NCBI GenBank assembly: GCA_003526375.1
Contig: DPDG01000114.1
Location: 60,818 to 124,817, forward strand
DNA: 64,000 nt
From: Lentisphaeria bacterium
GTDB lineage: Bacteria > Verrucomicrobiota > Lentisphaeria > Victivallales > UBA1829
Direction: 5' to 3'
Under the pieces are notes generated by a model. It saw only the letters and a list, made by a program, of their open reading frames with translations. It made no database searches and was not told the DNA's origin. The translations under genes were made by a program, and so were the position numbers. Numbering within the stretch: the first letter of the stretch is position 1; each line of letters begins with the position of its first letter. Of this stretch, positions 4,019 through 64,000 are shown piece by piece.

Positions 4019-5050
4019 CTACCTGCTGATTTTGCAGTCCAGTTTCCGGCCGTTCAAGGAGAAATGATTGAGCGTTACAGGTTCGCACATGGCAAGAAGT
4101 TCTTCGACGGAGGCCGTGGCGAGGCATTCCACCGTATCTGCGGCGCCGTAGTAGATTTTCACCTCTCCGGAATCTTCCTGAATCATTCCGCCGGGAAAGA
4201 TTACGGAACCGCGGAATCCTTCCAGTTCATATTTTTCGACGGGAGCCAGTAACGGTTTCCGGCAGAGCCCCGTCACTTTTGAGGGATCGTCCGGATTGAG
4301 GAGCATGAGCCCCGCGTAGTAGGTTTTGTTCCAGCGTGTTCCGCAGCCGAGATCCCAGCAGGAAAGATCTTTGCCTGTGTCCTTCCAGACGGCGTGGAAC
4401 AGTGTCAGATATCCTTGTTCCGTTCTGACGGGAGGTGCCGCGGGACCGATCTTGCTGTTGCAGAACGGCACATCCGCATGGGAAAGCACAATGCGCGACT
4501 CTCCCCAATGCCTGCCGTCGGGAGAAGTGGACATCCAGATATCGAAATGCTCCCGGTAGTTGAGACTGTATTCCGGGAAAGGACGTTCAAGGCGGACGAA
4601 TTTTCCATTGATTTTTTCAGGGAACAGCACCATGTTCCTGTTGTCCGGGGACGAGATGGAAAGAATTTCGATTGAACTGAAATCTTCGCTGATGAGTCCG
4701 ATGCCTCCGCATACTCCGAATCTGGTATCCGCTGCGAAACAGATGTAACACCGGTCTTCAATTACAGTCAGGCGCGGATCATAGATCCGTTCCAGTTCCG
4801 GATGGCGCCCGGCAGTTTCGAGCCACGGATGCGGCGCCGGTTTCCACTGTTTCCCGTCGTCACTGAATGCAATTCCCAGATTGATATGAATATCCTTTCT
4901 GGAATCGGGGGCAAATCCCACATCATTGCGGAATACCATGACATATTGATTCCGGTATTTTGCTACCCCGGCATTGAAGACCAGAGAGGACGGGTATGAG
5001 AGATCGGCGGAACTCAGAATCGGATTGTTTTCATAACGTTTTACGCTCAT
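4019..5050 (-). CDS. Glycoside hydrolase family 130 (beta-mannoside phosphorylase-like)
   Basis: N-terminus KRYENNPILS...VFNAGVAKYRNQYVMVFR and a length of about 340 aa are typical of GH130. Convergent with the UDG gene. Confidence 0.75.
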   Translation of the reverse strand: MSVKRYENNPILSSADLSYPSSLVFNAGVAKYRNQYVMVFRNDVGFAPDSRKDIHINLGIAFSDDGKQWKPAPHPWLETAGRHPELERIYDPRLTVIEDRCYICFAADTRFGVCGGIGLISEDFSSIEILSISSPDNRNMVLFPEKINGKFVRLERPFPEYSLNYREHFDIWMSTSPDGRHWGESRIVLSHADVPFCNSKIGPAAPPVRTEQGYLTLFHAVWKDTGKDLSCWDLGCGTRWNKTYYAGLMLLNPDDPSKVTGLCRKPLLAPVEKYELEGFRGSVIFPGGMIQEDSGEVKIYYGAADTVECLATASVEELLAMCEPVTLNHFSLNGRKLDCKISR

Positions 5051-9589: not shown

Positions 9590-10213
9590 TTATTTCACGA
9601 ACTTCCAGGAACAGCGGTTGCCGCGGTGGTCGACGCCTGAAAGAATATCGCCGCCGTGGAGCCTGCCGATTCCTTTCGGAGTGCCGGTGAAGATCAGATC
9701 ACCGGGAAGAAGCTTCCAGTCTCTGGATATCTCTACGATGAGGCGGTCGATCGGGAAAATCATCTGCGAGGTGTCGCCGGACTGGCGGAGTTCCTCATTG
9801 ACATAACCGGAGAAACGGAGATGCTTCAAGTCGTCCTTTGCCGGGTCGAACGGAGTCAGTTCTCCCAGCGGGGCGCTGTTGTCGAATGCTTTGCAGCGTT
9901 CCCACGGCTGGTTATGGCTCAGGAGAAACTTCTGAAGAGCCCGGTGCGTCAGATCGAAGCCGACGCCGAGAGCGCCGATGAACGCGGGAGCGTCTTTCAG
10001 AGCAAGCGCTTTTCCCGCTTTGCAGATTTCCACGACCAGCTCGGTTTCATAGTCCAGATCGCCGTCCGCAGGAAGTGGAAGCTCCGCTGTATCCGTCGTG
10101 ACGAGCGATGTGACCGGCTTCATGAAGATGACGGGATCGCCTTCTTCGTTGCCGAGTTCGCGGACATGTTCCACGTAATTTCTTCCGATGCAGAAAATTC
10201 TCTGTGTCGTCAT
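9590..10213 (-). CDS. Fumarylacetoacetate hydrolase (FAH) family protein
   Basis: IFCIGRNYVEHVRELG ... PVIFMKP ... DYETELVV ... GDLIFTGTPKG. Confidence 0.85.
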   Translation of the reverse strand: MTTQRIFCIGRNYVEHVRELGNEEGDPVIFMKPVTSLVTTDTAELPLPADGDLDYETELVVEICKAGKALALKDAPAFIGALGVGFDLTHRALQKFLLSHNQPWERCKAFDNSAPLGELTPFDPAKDDLKHLRFSGYVNEELRQSGDTSQMIFPIDRLIVEISRDWKLLPGDLIFTGTPKGIGRLHGGDILSGVDHRGNRCSWKFVK

Positions 10214-12814: not shown

Positions 12815-13615
12815 ATGAAAACTCTACTCAGAAACAGTGTCGTTGCAGCGCTGGCTCTTTCCGTATGCGGACTCTTTGCCGCAGATGGGAAAGCCGCTCC
12901 CGCACAGCCGCAGGTCAAAACAGCAGAAAAAGCGCAGAAGGGGACAAGCTGGACTCCGTTCCAGCTCGTGTTCCTGCCCGGCATTCCGGACAGTTCCATG
13001 ACTTCAACCGTTTACGGTCTGAAGCTCGGCATTCCCGCCACCGGAGGCAGGGGGCTGGTGAAAGGCGTTGAAGCTTCTTTCTTCTACAGTGGCACAAAGG
13101 ATGTGGAAGGCTGCCAGGCTTCCTGGTTCGGACCTGCGATCGCGCAGGGGGATGTCTACGGAATTCAGGCGACCATGGCGATGGCTCTGGTTTACCGCCT
13201 GACCGGATTCCAGGCTGCCGGGCTTGCCTTCACGACACAGCCGTCCAAAGGCTGCCAGGCGGGTATTTCCGCTGTTGCCGAGGATGATTTCAAAGGCTTT
13301 CAGACCGGTGCGGTTACAGTGACGGATGGTGAACTCGACGGCTTTCAGTTCGGCGCGGTCAATATCGTGACAAAGATTTTCAAGGGTTTCCAGTGTGGCG
13401 CGGTCAACATTGTGACGGGTGTCTTCAAAGGCTTCCAGTGCGGTGTGGTTAATTACAGTTCCGATGAAGGCATTCAGCTCGGCGGCATCAACATCATTGC
13501 CGACAGCTGGATTCCGGTAATGCCGATTTTCAATATCTGCCTCAGCTCCAAAGATAAAAAGGCTGAGACAGTCAAGGATGCGAACTGTCCGAAAGCAAAT
13601 GTCTCTGCAAAATAA
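12815..13615 (+). CDS. Exported repeat protein with GxQxGxxN 15-residue repeats
   Basis: Signal peptide MKTLLRNSVVAALALSVCGLFA. Repeats GFQTGAVTV / GFQFGAVNIVTKIFK / GFQCGAVNIVTGVFK / GFQCGVVNY / GIQLGGINII. SD AAGGAGA lies upstream. Confidence 0.7.
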   Translation: MKTLLRNSVVAALALSVCGLFAADGKAAPAQPQVKTAEKAQKGTSWTPFQLVFLPGIPDSSMTSTVYGLKLGIPATGGRGLVKGVEASFFYSGTKDVEGCQASWFGPAIAQGDVYGIQATMAMALVYRLTGFQAAGLAFTTQPSKGCQAGISAVAEDDFKGFQTGAVTVTDGELDGFQFGAVNIVTKIFKGFQCGAVNIVTGVFKGFQCGVVNYSSDEGIQLGGINIIADSWIPVMPIFNICLSSKDKKAETVKDANCPKANVSAK

Positions 13616-59306: not shown

Positions 59307-60434
59307 ATGAAAAAAACAAAAGTCGGTATTATCGGATGCGGAATGATTTCCGATACCTATTTCAAGGCGTCTCAAACTTTCAATATGATAGAGGTTGTCG
59401 CATGTTCCGACATCATCCCGGAGCGCTCCGCCGCAAAAAAGGAGCTTTACGGTGTCCAGAACATGACCAACGAAGAACTCCTGGCGATTCCGGAAATTGA
59501 GATTGTCCTGAATCTTACGCCTCCGCAGGTTCACTCCGGAATTGCGATGGATACACTGAACGCGGGCAAACACGCCTATTCGGAAAAACCTTTCGGAGTC
59601 GATTTTGACGATGCCGCAAAGGTAATGGCTCTGGCGAAGGAAAAGGGGCTCCGTGTGGGATGCGCTCCCGATACTTTCCTCGGCGGCGGACAGCAGACCG
59701 CACGCAAACTCATTGATGACGGGTGGATCGGCAAACCGCTTTCCGGCACTGCGATCGTCATGGGGCGCGGACCTGAAAAATGGGGACAGGCGCCGTTCTT
59801 CTATGACTACGGTGCGGGGCCGATGCTTGACCTCGGACCGTACTATATGACGGCTCTCGTCAATATGCTCGGCCCGGCGAAGAGTGTCATTGCCGTCACG
59901 ACCAAAGGTTTCGATTACCGCACTTTCGGCGCGGAAGTCGGTGAGACCTATAAGGACAAATACAAACCGTTTGATAAATATCCCGTGAATGTGACGACGC
60001 ACCTGACGGGTGTTGTCGAGTTCCAGTGCGGTGCGGTGATCACGGTGATCACCAGCTTCGACTGTTACAGGCACGGACACAGCCCGATTGAGATCTATGG
60101 AACCGAGGGATCGCTTCAGGTTCCCGATCCGAATACATTCGGCGGTCCGGTGAAAGTGTTCCGGAAAGGCGATACGGAGTCGGATTGGAAGAATGTCCCG
60201 CTGACCCATATCTACACGGAAAACAGCCGCAGCATCGGAGCCGCCGATATGGCAATGGCTCTCCGCAGCGGACGTAAACACCGTGTCAACGGCGAACTTG
60301 CAAACCATGTTCTTGAGATCATGCTTTCTTTCGACAAGTCCAGCAAACTGGGCAGGAAAGTAGAACTCGTGACAACTTGTGAACGTCCGGAGCCGCTGCC
60401 TCTCGGACTTGACAAGGGCGAACTTCCTGAATAA
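59307..60434 (+). CDS. Gfo/Idh/MocA-family NAD(P)-dependent oxidoreductase
   Basis: KVGIIGCGMISDTYF Rossmann motif and the EKPF motif. Start set at ATG 59307. Confidence 0.85.
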   Translation: MKKTKVGIIGCGMISDTYFKASQTFNMIEVVACSDIIPERSAAKKELYGVQNMTNEELLAIPEIEIVLNLTPPQVHSGIAMDTLNAGKHAYSEKPFGVDFDDAAKVMALAKEKGLRVGCAPDTFLGGGQQTARKLIDDGWIGKPLSGTAIVMGRGPEKWGQAPFFYDYGAGPMLDLGPYYMTALVNMLGPAKSVIAVTTKGFDYRTFGAEVGETYKDKYKPFDKYPVNVTTHLTGVVEFQCGAVITVITSFDCYRHGHSPIEIYGTEGSLQVPDPNTFGGPVKVFRKGDTESDWKNVPLTHIYTENSRSIGAADMAMALRSGRKHRVNGELANHVLEIMLSFDKSSKLGRKVELVTTCERPEPLPLGLDKGELPE

Positions 60435-60453
60435 ACTTCAGCAAGTGCGAAAA

Positions 60454-60502
60454 CAAAGGAAAGAACTCCTGAAGAGGCAGTTCTTTCCTTTGCCGTTTTT
60501 AT
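60454..60502 (+). terminator. Rho-independent terminator
   Basis: 14-bp stem CAAAGGAAAGAACT / AGTTCTTTCCTTTG with an 11-nt loop, then CCGTTTTTA. Confidence 0.7.
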
Positions 60503-60550
60503 TTTCCTGTTTTGCCGTGCAACAAAATTCATTCTTTTTCATAAGCGCTA

Positions 60551-60579
60551 TTGAATAAATGGGCTTATGGTATTATAAT
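60551..60579 (+). promoter_or_regulatory. Candidate tRNA promoter
   Basis: TTGAAT, a 17-nt spacer, then TATAAT ending 18 nt before tRNA position 1. Confidence 0.45.
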
Positions 60580-60596
60580 ACCAAGTTCCAAGAGAA

Positions 60597-60673
60597 GCAC
60601 CCGTAGCTCAGTTGGATAGAGCGTCTGCCTCCGGAGTAGAAGGTCGTGAGTTCAAGTCTCGCCGGGTGCACCA
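60597..60673 (+). tRNA. tRNA-Arg (anticodon CCG), CCA encoded
   Basis: Hand-folded cloverleaf: acceptor GCACCCG/CGGGTGC, D arm GCTC-AGTTGGATA-GAGC, anticodon arm TCTGC-CTCCGGA-GTAGA (anticodon CCG), T arm GTGAG-TTCAAGT-CTCGC, discriminator A, CCA. Confidence 0.93.
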
Positions 60674-60910
60674 TCTTATTTTATTTCTAAGTGCTTATCT
60701 ACAAGCTATTTATAAAGCTTAATAACTTATCGTTTGCCTTTCATTGTTTTTCGATTGTTTTCCATTCTTTTCGAGTGTCAAAATACCGTGAAGGTCTACC
60801 GAACGTCCACCACTTTTTTGAATCTACCCCTCAAGTTACTTTTTTCAAGTATTTTCTTCAGGAATGATCTAATCGCATGTCTCTATCCCTGTAGTTTGGC
60901 AGGAAATGGG

Positions 60911-60997
60911 CTCCTCGGACGCATCACGGACGTTTCTCGGACGCTCCCCGGACGGATAGAAAGCTTGCAATTTGAGGCTCCTCGGACGTTTCGGACG
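60911..60997 (+). repeat. CGGACG direct-repeat array (4 copies at exactly 11-bp spacing plus a CGGACGTTTCGGACG dyad)
   Basis: CGGAC starts at 60916, 60927, 60938, 60949, 60983 and 60992. Both blocks open with CTCCTCGGACG. Confidence 0.9.
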
Positions 60998-61100
60998 CTT
61001 TGTCGCAATTTTTTATATATGCGCAACCTACGCGCACTCGCGCGAGGCTGTGCCCAAAGGAAGGAGATCATACTACCCCCTGCTGTATTCATAAGTCACC

Positions 61101-61147
61101 CCGAACTTTCCGAACTTTTCCGAACTTGTTCCGAACTTCCTCCGAAC
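61101..61147 (+). repeat. CCGAAC(T/A)T direct-repeat array, 5 copies at 9-11-bp spacing
   Basis: CCGAAC starts at 61101, 61110, 61120, 61131 and 61142. Confidence 0.9.
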
Positions 61148-61412
61148 ATGATTAGCCTCAAAAATGGCAAAGTTAGGAGGAAAAGGCTGAAAAAGATGTG
61201 CAGACAAGCTATTCTTATCATTTAAACAGTAACATTACACGGAGGATACCATGAGAGTTGATGCTTTTCTGAATGCATTCGATGCCATTGCCGCGAGTGT
61301 TGGACTTGCGTAGACTCCCCCAGAAGACAGCCCGTTTGCACAGTAAAGGTAGGAAGGCGCTGACTGTCGCGGATATCAGCCATGGCTCCATTTGTCTTAT
61401 CCATGGATTCTT

Positions 61413-61482
61413 GGGACGGTAGTGGGACGGATTTAGGACTGGTAAATAGCAGAGAAATGGGCGTATGGGACGGATGGGACGG
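61413..61482 (+). repeat. GGGACGG direct-repeat array
   Basis: GGGACGG at 61413, 61424, 61467 and 61476, with a degenerate AGGACTGG at 61435. Spacings are 11, 11 and 9 bp. Confidence 0.85.
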
Positions 61483-61542
61483 ATATTTTTGATTTCTTGG
61501 TTTGCATGCGCCTGCGCGCGTGTAAGCGCGCATAAGCTAAGC

Positions 61543-61682
61543 TCGGACATTTCGGACACATATTTTCAAGTCCTTATAAGGGCAGATAGAGACGTTTATT
61601 TTTCTCCGGACATTTCGGACCGTTTTTCAGAACTCTTATATAGACACCTTTTTGCGATTCTATCTCTCCGGACATTTCGGAC
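61543..61682 (+). repeat. Degenerate ~62-64-bp tandem units each carrying CGGACATTTCGGAC
   Basis: Exact 14-mer at 61543, 61607 and 61669. The inter-copy sequences are related (TTTTCA..CTTATA). Confidence 0.9.
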
Positions 61683-61746
61683 ATATATTTACTTACGCGT
61701 GTGGAAAAAAGTATATATTGGACAATGGCAGGGGACATATGTATTT

Positions 61747-61857
61747 TTTTTTGTTCCTGATAAGGAGTTTGAAAAAAGTGTCCGTTTTGTCCATGAGTCC
61801 CCTATTAGCCCTTTTTTGTTCCTAATAAGGAGTTTGAAAAAAGTGTCCGTTTTGTCC
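61747..61857 (+). repeat. Two 46-bp direct repeats (65-bp period) carrying the dyad in inverted orientation
   Basis: TTTTTTGTTCCT(G/A)ATAAGGAGTTTGAAAAAAGTGTCCGTTTTGTCC at 61747-61792 and 61812-61857, with one mismatch. GTCCGTTTTGTCC is the reverse complement of GGACAAAACGGAC. Confidence 0.9.
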
Positions 61858-61901
61858 GTGAACCTCCTGTCATACACCACCGTATCAACTCACTGCATGG
61901 T

Positions 61902-61944
61902 AAAAAAAAGACGGAGGGAAGGCTTGTACTCCTTCGACCTCCGT
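61902..61944 (-). terminator. Rho-independent terminator of the minus-strand DUF932 operon
   Basis: On the minus strand: ACGGAGG-TC-GAAGG-AGTACAAG-CCTTC-CCTCCGT followed by CTTTTTTTT. Confidence 0.75.
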
Positions 61945-62083
61945 AATGCTTTGGACATCCTCATGGCGCATCACTTCATGGGGCGGGTCTTCCGGACAGG
62001 AGGGCACAACAGGAGGCCTCCCACCGGAATCTCTTCACGCAGGGAAGAGTCAGCGGGACCTTATGATTGTTTCGCAAATGATA

Positions 62084-62806
62084 TCAGCTCCAGAGCTCCG
62101 GTCGGTTGCCGTCCAAACCGAAGCAGCGGTTCAGAGCGGCGTAGGAGACGTCCACCCGTTGCGGGGTGTATTTCCTGACCGTCTCCGTGAACGCATTCAA
62201 CAGGCTCCATCGGGTCGGCTCGGCGAACTCCTCGTGCGAGGGATTCTTGAATTCCTTGTACACCGGTACAATATCCGAGCTGTTGATTGCACCGAGTTCT
62301 GCGGCTCTGACGATTCGGCTTCTGGCTTCGTCGTCGTTGTCCAGATACGCCACTTTCAAGTCCTCGCAGACATTCTCCAATATCAGGAACTCGTTTTCGA
62401 GCTCATCGACGGCACGGTTCACCAGATCGCACAGCTCAATCCGCGAGGTGTGGCGACGCTTCAGAACCATGCTCCCGCCGAACGCCATGTTACTGCACAC
62501 CATCACACTGATTCCGGCTGTCAGCCCCACGGAAAAGCTCTTGTCGTGGCTGTTTCTGAGCCCGATACAGCGACACCATTCCAGCGAGGAACTCCTGTTG
62601 ATCTTCATCACGCCGAACAGCTTCGCACCCTCACGTGCCAAGCCGAACTGCTCCTCCAGAATCACCCACTGATGCGCCTGCACCACCTCCGTTACCGCCT
62701 CAATGACCTCATAATGCGGAACCGGTTTCCAGCTCGAAGTCGCCTCCGGCGTCGGAACCAGCGCGATTTCTTCCGTGTGGCGTAGTGACCACCGCCGCCC
62801 ATGCAA
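62084..62806 (-). CDS. DUF932-domain protein (phage/plasmid/ICE-associated)
   Basis: IGLRNSHDKSFSVGLTAGISVMVCSNMAFGG...KRRHT is the DUF932 core as I remember it. Confidence 0.65.
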   Translation of the reverse strand: MHGRRWSLRHTEEIALVPTPEATSSWKPVPHYEVIEAVTEVVQAHQWVILEEQFGLAREGAKLFGVMKINRSSSLEWCRCIGLRNSHDKSFSVGLTAGISVMVCSNMAFGGSMVLKRRHTSRIELCDLVNRAVDELENEFLILENVCEDLKVAYLDNDDEARSRIVRAAELGAINSSDIVPVYKEFKNPSHEEFAEPTRWSLLNAFTETVRKYTPQRVDVSYAALNRCFGLDGNRPELWS

Positions 62807-62821
62807 AGATGACTCATCGTC

Positions 62822-63607
62822 TCACCCCTTCCTCACGTGCCACAAACGGCACTTGTTTTTGTAAGGACAATCCGCGCAGGAAAAACCTGTCTCATTCGGA
62901 TAGAACACCTCCCTCTGCACCGCCGATTCGATTGTCTGCGCCAGCAATTCAAAACGCAGGAAATCCGCCTCATTGCGCTCGGTATAGTGCGACTCCACGC
63001 ATGGCGTTCTGGTCTTCGTCACGATATCGAACCGGAACAGCGGACTCCTGCCGGTCAGTTTTGTACGGGCGTAACAAAAAGCGGTCGCCTGCAAGTCCTG
63101 ATGCGCCTTGCCCGCAGACCACTTCGCGCCTGCCGTTTTCCAATCGACGATATACTCATGACCGCCGTCCTCCACGATCAGATCATACTCCCCGATCAGC
63201 GGCTTCGACAGCCCCGGAATCTCCACGGAAAACCCTTCCTCTACGCTCCTGACCGCAAAGTCATCCTGCCAGTTTTCGAGGCAGACAGTGAGCATGGCAA
63301 ATCCCGTTTGCAGCAGAGACCCGTAATCTTCTTTCGGCTTGTAGACGAGGTGTTCCACGGCATTGGTTTCCGCCTTGAAATACGCCTCGAACAGCTCTTT
63401 TGCATCTGCGATTTTCAGCTGCGGACCGCTCCTTGCACGCTGACTCAACGCCGCATGGAAGGCACGCCCGAACGGGAAGCAGCTGCACGTGTGTTCCGGC
63501 TTTGCATGTTCGAGATACTGGAACTTGAATTTCAGCGGGCATGTCAGGTAGCAGTGGAACGCCGAATACGACCAGTGCGGTTCCTTGCGCAACTCATTCA
63601 GGTTCAT
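62822..63607 (-). CDS. PD-(D/E)XK nuclease, Cas4/RecB-like with Fe-S cysteines
   Basis: N-terminal Cys (YLTCPLKFKF), nuclease core IGEYDLIVEDGGHEYIVDWKT, and C-terminal CADCPYKNKC (CX2CX5C). Confidence 0.8.
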   Translation of the reverse strand: MNLNELRKEPHWSYSAFHCYLTCPLKFKFQYLEHAKPEHTCSCFPFGRAFHAALSQRARSGPQLKIADAKELFEAYFKAETNAVEHLVYKPKEDYGSLLQTGFAMLTVCLENWQDDFAVRSVEEGFSVEIPGLSKPLIGEYDLIVEDGGHEYIVDWKTAGAKWSAGKAHQDLQATAFCYARTKLTGRSPLFRFDIVTKTRTPCVESHYTERNEADFLRFELLAQTIESAVQREVFYPNETGFSCADCPYKNKCRLWHVRKG

Positions 63608-63608
63608 T

Positions 63609-64000
63609 TCACGCCGCCTTTCCGTTGAACTCGTTGATCGCCAGACTGCACTGATTGCGCGACAGCTCCTCTACGGAATTCACCCGGAACCTTGCCGCGA
63701 TCTGCTGAGGCGTGACACGGGCGTCCCTTGCGAGGTCGAGCAGATACTTGATCTGTTTCGGAGACGCGGGACCATCAACATTCTGACTGCCTTTCCCCTT
63801 GCCGTAACTGCCCTTTCCACCGGAATAACTCTGTGACGATTGTGGTATTTGCTGTACAGCCGTACAATTACCGCTATGCAGCTCCGTTTCGACACTGTTT
63901 CGCACAAGATCAAAGGTCTCATGGATGCGGCTCTGAAGCTGTTCCGCCGTCAGACCGTCCGGGATTTCCACCTCAATGGAGGCGTGGTAGCTCTGGCTGG
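63609..64000 (-). CDS. Hypothetical protein, probably 5'-truncated by the right window edge
   Basis: The frame stays open upstream of the GTG at 63971 to the window end. Gly/Lys-rich linker (GGKGSYGKGKGS), then PKQIKYLLDLARDARVTPQQIAARF. The stop abuts the nuclease start. Confidence 0.5.
   Translation of the reverse strand, partial: SQSYHASIEVEIPDGLTAEQLQSRIHETFDLVRNSVETELHSGNCTAVQQIPQSSQSYSGGKGSYGKGKGSQNVDGPASPKQIKYLLDLARDARVTPQQIAARFRVNSVEELSRNQCSLAINEFNGKAA

Follow-up and report, generated by a model that had tools for sequence, protein, structure and literature searches.

Near the right end of a 64,000-nucleotide (nt) stretch of a Lentisphaeria bacterium genome (contig DPDG01000114.1; G000:C26:60818-124817, with G000 the genome and C26 the contig; hereafter "the window," i.e., the whole stretch that was analyzed), a tRNA-Arg(CCG) gene is followed by a non-coding field of repeats and then by a compact operon transcribed back toward the tRNA. 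The contig ends 797 nt past the window. An original prediction, made from the letters of this DNA, took the tRNA for the junction with an integrated mobile element that has no integrase on the tRNA side. Gene order, related copies elsewhere and a sister island bear out this junction, and we think it probable that the tRNA 3′ end is attL, the left attachment (att) site of an integrated genomic island. That judgment is a joint one, covering an island of the layout described below whose integrase sits, or formerly sat, at its far end. The features on which the argument draws are as follows (window coordinates; aa, amino acids; E, expect value).

60597..60673, plus strand: tRNA-Arg(CCG), intact, forming the probable attL junction (ARAGORN, Rfam)
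60627..60673, plus strand: predicted att core, 45-47 nt, from the anticodon loop to CCA (from partial tRNA copies elsewhere)
60674..60803, plus strand: predicted P′ arm of attL, element-derived and integrase-type-specific, with the arm-type motif GAAGGTCTACC at 60790-60800
60804..60902, plus strand: conserved left end of the island family, where homology to the tRNA-Phe, tRNA-Met and tRNA-Gln copies begins
60903..61870, no strand: non-coding repeat field, read as putatively origin-like from its repeats and position
62084..62806, minus strand: DUF932 protein, 240 aa (244 aa with an alternative start), last gene of the operon (PF06067, E 5e-11; phrog_1221)
62822..63607, minus strand: PD-(D/E)XK nuclease, 261 aa, Cas4/RecB-like exonuclease fold (PF12705, E 1e-25; PHROG exonuclease families)
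63609..64000, continuing to window position 64115, minus strand: 168-aa protein without a family

The tRNA-Arg(CCG) junction and its island family

The tRNA-Arg(CCG) gene, the sole tRNA in the window according to ARAGORN, scores 65.8 bits in Rfam and has an identical sequence in the congeners G002 and G005. Gene order is shared with G002 (90.5% identity over 4.5 kb) up to the CCA of the tRNA and no further, and the alignment with G005 (94.7% overall) extends 47 nt beyond the tRNA, those 47 nt being weakly alike. Past this point both congeners carry housekeeping genes—HMGL-like and HD phosphohydrolase genes in G002, SurA-type peptidyl-prolyl isomerase and LysM protein genes in G005—and G003:C7 holds a short scar only. 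Occupancy of the tRNA-Arg site thus varies in relatives, in keeping with the expectation that close relatives would show an empty or different site. The downstream genes of the two congeners were also considered as a marker of the right flank of the island and rejected, as both sets map inside G000 contigs (C23 and C66) and not at contig ends.

Within the window, GC content in 400-nt windows is 0.40-0.475 across 60400-61999, against a genome average of 0.516, and rises to 0.53-0.595 in the operon. The interval 60674-62083 holds no open reading frame (ORF) conserved between copies, and no integrase lies between the tRNA and the operon. The AT-richer, non-coding stretch that had been read directly 3′ of the tRNA is therefore upheld, as is the packed minus-strand operon running toward the tRNA and off the window, in which the 168-aa, PD-(D/E)XK and DUF932 genes are separated by gaps of 1 nt and 4-15 nt. 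Every operon gene seen is intact. The upstream part of the operon, beyond the window, consists of a beta-clamp-like 452-aa gene (phrog_947, E 3e-12; TIGR00663, E 2e-5, below the cut-off), a 123-aa gene and a 258-aa gene.

This gene set is not confined to the tRNA-Arg locus. In G000 itself the DUF932 and PD-(D/E)XK genes occur three times, on C26, C64 and C17, with amino-acid identities of 93-98%; the DUF932 copies on C64 and C17 are at 96-98%. The C64 copy adjoins tRNA-Phe(GAA) in the same orientation as the Arg copy and shares its left end and repeat field at 78-95% identity. Taken with the end of C39, the C17 copy is orthologous to a ~9.5-kb island at tRNA-Lys(CTT) in G003 and G005, where the order is tRNA-Lys, integrase (PF00589), 465-aa protein, HTH_17 protein, YagK/YfjJ-Rep-like protein, 262-aa protein, DUF932, PD-(D/E)XK, 168-aa protein, clamp-like 454-aa protein and then chromosomal rhaA. 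In congeners the conserved left end adjoins tRNA-Arg(ACG), tRNA-Met, tRNA-Gln and tRNA-Arg(CCG). Of 251 genomes of the order, 99 carry the PD-(D/E)XK gene, with a maximum of 10 copies in one genome. The cassette (clamp-like, 168-aa, PD-(D/E)XK and DUF932 genes) keeps its gene order at each of the six loci that were sampled (five genomes), of which three adjoin tRNA-Pro, tRNA-Met and tRNA-Glu. Taken over all relatives, the cassette stands beside at least eight different tRNAs. The junction and the island family are thus direct observations.

The site also bears traces of other insertions. A 60-nt scar of the island left end lies 3′ of tRNA-Arg(CCG) at 2619-2900 of locus L031 (G003:C7) and at 4554-4800 of locus L029 (G001:C26), cut off in both by a sequence that resembles the C-terminal remainder of an IS3-type transposase. 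The scar flank is 98.8% identical between the two genomes, which is evidence for repeated use of the tRNA-Arg(CCG) site.

Integrases at the distal end of most checked islands

The extent of the att site follows from copies of it elsewhere. The exact 60627-60673 segment recurs, as a tRNA fragment, next to the Arg-type integrases of G001:C26, L039 and L042, and the tRNA-Phe sister island repeats the equivalent 47 nt plus TTTTT. The sequence past the core (60674-60803) is common to Arg(CCG) and Arg(ACG) islands and unlike between Arg and Phe islands; on C64, ~140 nt of unrelated sequence follow tRNA-Phe before the common left end, the homology beginning at window position 60804. The arm motif of the relatives' Arg-type integrases (AAGGTCTACC) recurs at window 60790-60800, where GAAGGTCTACC has the same orientation as the P-arm motif of the relatives. 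The P arms beside five Arg-type integrase genes all hold AAGGTCAAATAAAGGTCTACC, ~60-90 nt from the core, and the Phe island has another motif, ATTCGTCYAC, in both of its arms. Motif sharing between the Arg P′ arm and P arms, together with a distinct Phe motif, is the pattern expected of arm-type integrase sites and, judged from sequence, identifies 60674-60803 as the predicted P′ arm of an Arg-type att site.

The far end of such an island is observed directly in the tRNA-Phe sister and in relatives. In the sister, an exact 52-nt repeat around G000:C9:18782-18826, made up of the final 47 nt of tRNA-Phe and TTTTT, is the attR. Beyond this repeat lie an apparent native tRNA terminator hairpin and then a chromosomal gene; inside it lies a 473-aa tyrosine integrase (PF00589; C9:17218-18639, minus strand), followed inward by a small gene and by a 751-aa primase-helicase (C9:14226-16481) with PriCT_2 and DUF5906 domains (TIGR01613, the P4-family primase, at 151.7 bits vs. 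a cut-off of 108.7). Because the start of C9 carries a homologue of the 258-aa gene, the Phe island can be pieced together as C64:10476 to the contig end, an unassembled gap of 2.5-3 kb, and C9:1-18826, i.e., an island of ~24 kb, bounded by attL and attR, with the integrase at its far end and with Sel1-repeat and unknown proteins as cargo. A tRNA-Met island in G024 (C39) matches this layout, including the far-end integrase and the att repeat.

Arg-type relatives have a similar arrangement. G001:C26 carries a primase, a 135-aa gene, a 466-aa integrase and then a 45-nt tRNA-Arg(CCG) 3′ half, and integrases 75-88% identical to this one adjoin 45-47-nt halves of tRNA-Arg(CCG) in L039 and L042 and of tRNA-Arg(ACG) in L040 and L061. 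After the integrase come HTH_17 and PriCT_2/D5 genes in L039 and L040 and only an HTH_17 gene before the contig end in L042; in L061 BrnT/BrnA takes the place of these genes, and the integrase lies within 1.3 kb of a PD-(D/E)XK gene 88% identical to that of the window. Five further samples, the window's sample not among them, yielded homologues of the Arg-type integrase of G001. We also considered G001:C26 as a circular or tandem attP junction and rejected this, as its P′ arm subtype differs from that of G001's own attL and its flank is the G003 chromosomal site, which makes it a scar left by an earlier element.

In most checked islands of the family, then, the integrase sits at the distal (attR) end. 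The original prediction was correct in placing no integrase on the tRNA side but not in treating this as an anomaly: here a tRNA without an adjoining integrase reflects the layout and is not the sign of a new integration mechanism. Extending this layout, we infer the same far end for the Arg copy, now or in the past. Rightward from the tRNA, the island would consist of an integrase-specific P′ arm of ~130 nt, the conserved left end, and a 1-kb iteron field, probably the origin used by the P4/D5-type primase-helicase of the family. The operon directed toward the tRNA would follow (258-aa, 123-aa, beta-clamp-like, 168-aa, PD-(D/E)XK nuclease and DUF932 genes), and at the other island end a tyrosine integrase, an HTH_17 excisionase-like gene and a primase would stand next to attR, which would repeat the 3′ half of the tRNA over 45-50 nt. 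Excision would bring the integrase, P arm, core, P′ arm and iteron field together in one uninterrupted stretch of the circle; integration would then place the integrase far from the tRNA.

Far end of the Arg copy, alternative explanations and comparable elements

Several observations weigh against the proposed layout. The far end of the Arg copy is unobserved, and the assembly contains no tRNA-Arg attR, Arg-type P arm or Arg-type integrase anywhere: a genome-wide search with the tRNA-Arg 3′ segment (15-45 nt, ≤1 mismatch), the Arg-type P arm and the arm motif returned only tRNA-Arg itself and chance 11-mers. The far-end position of the integrase is common but not universal, since the tRNA-Lys member has its integrase next to the tRNA. 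Two cassettes beside tRNAs appear without an integrase, namely G003:C17, with none on either side (Pfam on ORFs) and no att repeat, and G037:C1, with none in 40 kb (tblastn, two integrase queries). Compositional deviation is weak (tetranucleotide z ≤ 1.85, with the maximum over the repeat field), and the origin reading draws on position and architecture. As to composition, such a weak signal is expected for a family long resident in its lineage, and deviation is a non-obligatory feature of tRNA-integrated islands.

The original prediction had proposed that the sequence be extended rightward and searched for a direct repeat of the tRNA 3′ segment, for recombinase, conjugation or capsid genes, and for a deviating GC and k-mer profile. 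No direct repeat exists at ≥15 nt and ≤1 mismatch in the assembly, which stops short of the far end, and the deviation, as noted, is slight. The rightward extension succeeded in part. Contig-end overlaps give no link from C26 to other contigs, but a second assembly of the same strain (ENA ERZ28572640, scaffold_267), found by exact-protein match and 99.8% identical over 11.2 kb, adds 2.8 kb to the Arg island. This added stretch matches C9:1-1828 at 89% identity. It carries the clamp-like 452-aa gene and the genes of 123 aa and 258 aa, as well as a 120-nt palindrome and a long hairpin that is conserved; up to the contig end it shows neither an attR nor a P arm or integrase of Arg type. As for the gene types named, an integrase is present in the Phe sister and none is seen for the Arg copy, whose interior is partly seen. 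Capsid, terminase and tail genes are absent from the scanned genes of the Phe sister (attL to attR) and of the 9.5-kb tRNA-Lys member, and Pfam gives no match to relaxase or type IV secretion genes among those scanned in the sister and in relatives.

These results leave room for the view that the Arg copy is an integrase-less derivative—a decayed remnant or a cis-mobilizable element that kept attL, field and cassette and lost the integrase module—and that it is immobile or moves only with an Arg-type integrase from another element. The failure to find Arg-type integrase, P arm and attR in a metagenome-assembled genome (MAG) that is 96.65% complete favors such a derivative, as do the integrase-less cassettes of G003:C17 and G037:C1 and the persistence of left-end scars 3′ of tRNA-Arg in G003:C7, G001:C26 and L040. 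Yet the interior of the Arg copy parallels the intact tRNA-Phe sister (89% identity) as far as any assembly reaches, the operon genes seen are all intact, the P′ arm retains its arm-type motif, and the break itself is technical, falling among repeated copies and at a (GCAA)n microsatellite in an assembly with no contig shorter than 2562 nt, from which short repeat-bounded pieces would be missing. We therefore regard an integrase-less derivative as unlikely. The microsatellite, of at least 13 units, ends scaffold_267 (L036:1-50), the only contig that extends the Arg island, and is the likely cause of the assembly break. That MAGs break at this point is explained by the several related copies, the microsatellite and the removal of short contigs.

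Two further explanations fare much worse. A prophage or an integrative and conjugative element with its structural or transfer genes past the contig end would agree with integration at a tRNA, with the PHROG matches for the nuclease, clamp-like protein, primase and integrase, and with the unseen far part of the Arg copy; but in the ~24-kb tRNA-Phe sister no scanned gene matches a relaxase, type IV secretion or a capsid, tail or terminase gene, the tRNA-Lys member spans no more than ~9.5 kb, and phage and plasmid collections hold only relatives at ≤30% identity, which makes this very improbable. That the DNA 3′ of the tRNA is ordinary conserved chromosome with no mobile element is scarcely credible: the weak compositional deviation and the lack of an att repeat in the assembly would fit, whereas the synteny break at the tRNA end in two congeners, the three cassette copies beside different tRNAs in one genome, the patchy, multi-copy presence across the order, and the att repeats and integrase of the sister copy all speak against it.

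The island is probably a tRNA-integrated, P4-like or CP4-57-like genomic island. With P4 and P4-like elements of Enterobacteria its family shares a tyrosine integrase that targets the 3′ portion of a tRNA gene, a primase-helicase of the P4 family (exceeding the TIGR01613 cut-off in the sister island and present in relatives, but not seen for the Arg copy), small size and the lack of virion genes of its own. P4 has iteron-type origin repeats (ori and crr) for its primase-helicase protein, to which the repeat field may be the counterpart. P4-type capsid-size and helper-exploitation, capsid-hijack or regulatory genes have no Pfam or PHROG match among the scanned proteins, although no search was aimed at them, and P4 is not known to carry an operon of beta-clamp-like, 168-aa, PD-(D/E)XK and DUF932 genes. 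Unlike P4, moreover, the island resides in a Victivallales-like gut bacterium and has no known helper phage.

Also comparable are the CP4-57/CP4-6-type cryptic islands of E. coli and similar Pseudomonas islands such as GIPni1, which are likewise linked to a tRNA or tmRNA and combine a tyrosine integrase and an AlpA/HTH_17-type excisionase with YagK/YfjJ (inovirus Gp2-like) and DUF932 proteins; the tRNA-Lys member has all four. GIPni1 has been described with an integrase, AlpA, inovirus Gp2 and DUF932 (PMC7466150). They differ from our islands in that identity to known DUF932 proteins is ≤30%, in that the window copy has an iteron field where the integrase/Rep module would be, and in the tight coupling of the clamp-like gene and the nuclease to DUF932 here. 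Phage-inducible chromosomal islands (PICIs; including the Staphylococcus aureus pathogenicity islands, SaPIs) offer a further parallel, with modular integrase, excisionase and primase-replicase, an iteron origin flanking an AT-rich stretch, and several related islands per genome with differing att specificities. In contrast to PICIs, however, no packaging or interference genes were recognized among the scanned island genes, and the PICI origin directly follows the rep gene, whereas origin and primase are adjacent here only in the circular form or in the G003:C17 variant. Lastly, cis-mobilizable elements (CIMEs), which arise with the tandem accretion of integrative elements, resemble these islands in comprising integrase-less copies beside a tRNA, bounded by att-type sequences, and in the older left-end scars next to the attR of newer insertions (G001:C26, L040); for the window copy, unlike CIMEs, the loss of the integrase and a second att site are both conjectural.

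A literature search found no description of this island family. The named integrase homologues carry the label Victivallaceae, and the records with this contig are human-gut metagenomes, with human-gut samples behind ENA ERZ28572640 and ERZ918879; the lineage is therefore probably Victivallales. These data provide a first anatomy of a mobile family common in human-gut Victivallales-like bacteria, covering the att core, arm motif, origin-like field, conserved operon and far-end integrase/excisionase/primase module. For annotation, the cassette of clamp-like, 168-aa, PD-(D/E)XK and DUF932 genes is usable as an island marker in the order, while the breadth of tRNA targets, the co-resident copies and the conserved clamp-like/nuclease/DUF932 operon add to the interest of the family.

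The repeat field, the operon and neighboring features

The repeat field contains CGGACG four times at 11-nt spacing, CCGAAC five times, GGGACGG four times, CGGACATTTCGGAC three times at 62-63 nt, and two 57-nt units that hold the inverted motif, with an AT-rich stretch with GC palindromes in each half. In G003:C17 a 471-aa D5-like primase-helicase gene (D5_N, DUF5906, Pox_D5) is immediately preceded by the first unit of this field, in which four phased CGGACG sites and a dyad come before the AT-rich stretch and its GC palindromes. Iterons flanking an AT-rich stretch beside an initiator gene are the usual layout of P4-type and PICI-type origins. By this analogy, we infer that the field is most likely the replication origin region of the island, here duplicated and diversified. 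Rfam gave no match in the field or around the conserved hairpins except the tRNA itself. A plus-strand ORF over the field (237 aa; 242 aa stop-to-stop from 61450), for which the gene caller gives a 234-aa product in the second assembly, was considered as a gene and rejected, as it is not kept in the C64 copy.

A bolder proposal, and to us a doubtful one, is that the unusually long field, rather than being a single origin, is a composite landing pad with three distinct iteron specificities (CGGAC, CCGAAC and GGGACGG) in two origin-like units. It is a joint proposal, quite unlikely overall, with the notions of a guild of module-exchanging islands and of the operon as a core function. If true, one island might draw on the primase-helicases of a helper or of co-resident islands for its replication, or might compete with them; the islands would form a lineage-wide guild of tRNA-hopping, P4-like replicative elements that swap integrase/att modules; and the clamp-like/nuclease/DUF932 operon would be a core function rather than cargo, possibly in recombination-dependent replication or helper interference.

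For the nuclease, the original prediction had proposed a Cas4-like PD-(D/E)XK protein. The PD-(D/E)XK assignment holds (PF12705, as listed), but membership in CRISPR-associated Cas4 was rejected: TIGR00372 gives 26.6 bits vs. a cut-off of 65, and the neighbors are island genes. By its predicted fold the protein is thus a PD-(D/E)XK exonuclease and not the product of a cas gene. PADLOC made no defense assignment for the cassette.

Three further features frame the island or recur within it.

60551..60579, plus strand: predicted sigma-70-like tRNA promoter TTGAAT-17-TATAAT on the chromosomal side (consensus scan, position only)
61902..61943, minus strand: intrinsic terminator closing the DUF932 operon; on the minus strand its bulged hairpin (ACGGAGG..CCTCCGT) runs into T8
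L036:215-445, minus strand (~3.0-3.2 kb past the window end, same island); G000:C9:1470-1700; L026 (G003:C17) 9835-10066: long hairpin

The genes 5′ of tRNA-Arg are ordinary, i.e., an AraC-type regulator, a protein of sugar-phosphate isomerase/AP-endonuclease-2 fold and an oxidoreductase (Gfo/Idh/MocA) whose gene ends at 60434; between this gene and the promoter-like site of tRNA-Arg stands a hairpin (60454-60492). A simple terminator scanner missed the hairpin at 61902-61943 because of its bulge. The terminator and its flanks (61889-61949) retain 85-93% DNA identity across several genera while the adjacent proteins are only 50-78% identical, a conservation that exceeds the need of a terminator alone. 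The long hairpin, imperfect and ~180 nt in length with 61 predicted pairs, stands upstream of the 258-aa gene, has no Rfam match, and keeps 13 pairs through changes on both sides, although among only three sequences; it could be an RNA or a DNA hairpin (a single-strand origin, priming site or oriT).

Other observations concern cargo and neighboring islands. The tRNA-Phe island contains two copies of a palindromic repeat of 120 nt (GGGGACTATGGGGAC ... GTCCCCAC), at C9:1017-1136 and C9:14098-14217, and the Arg extension has it too (L036, reverse complement 13163-13283). The two Phe-island copies bracket 13 kb of cargo, with unknown 475-, 565- and 330-aa proteins and three Sel1-repeat proteins, which suggests that a cargo cassette was inserted or exchanged at that repeat. 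The 565-aa protein (G000:C9:3571-5268) matches the PADLOC candidate defense family PDC-M09A (E 2e-20, over ~80 residues). In related islands of other gut samples, toxin-antitoxin pairs lie beside the integrase, BrnT/BrnA at L061:2097-2590 and PhdYeFM/ParE at L042:258-865. G000 also contains two islands that lack the DUF932 cassette and have a far-end integrase: one at tRNA-Asn (C70:24995-25069 with C93:6113-6134), whose integrase (C93:4667-6016) stands beside an attR repeat of at least 22 nt, and one at tRNA-Ala(CGC) (C30:65215-71374), in which the whole tRNA is duplicated 6 kb apart with the integrase between the copies.

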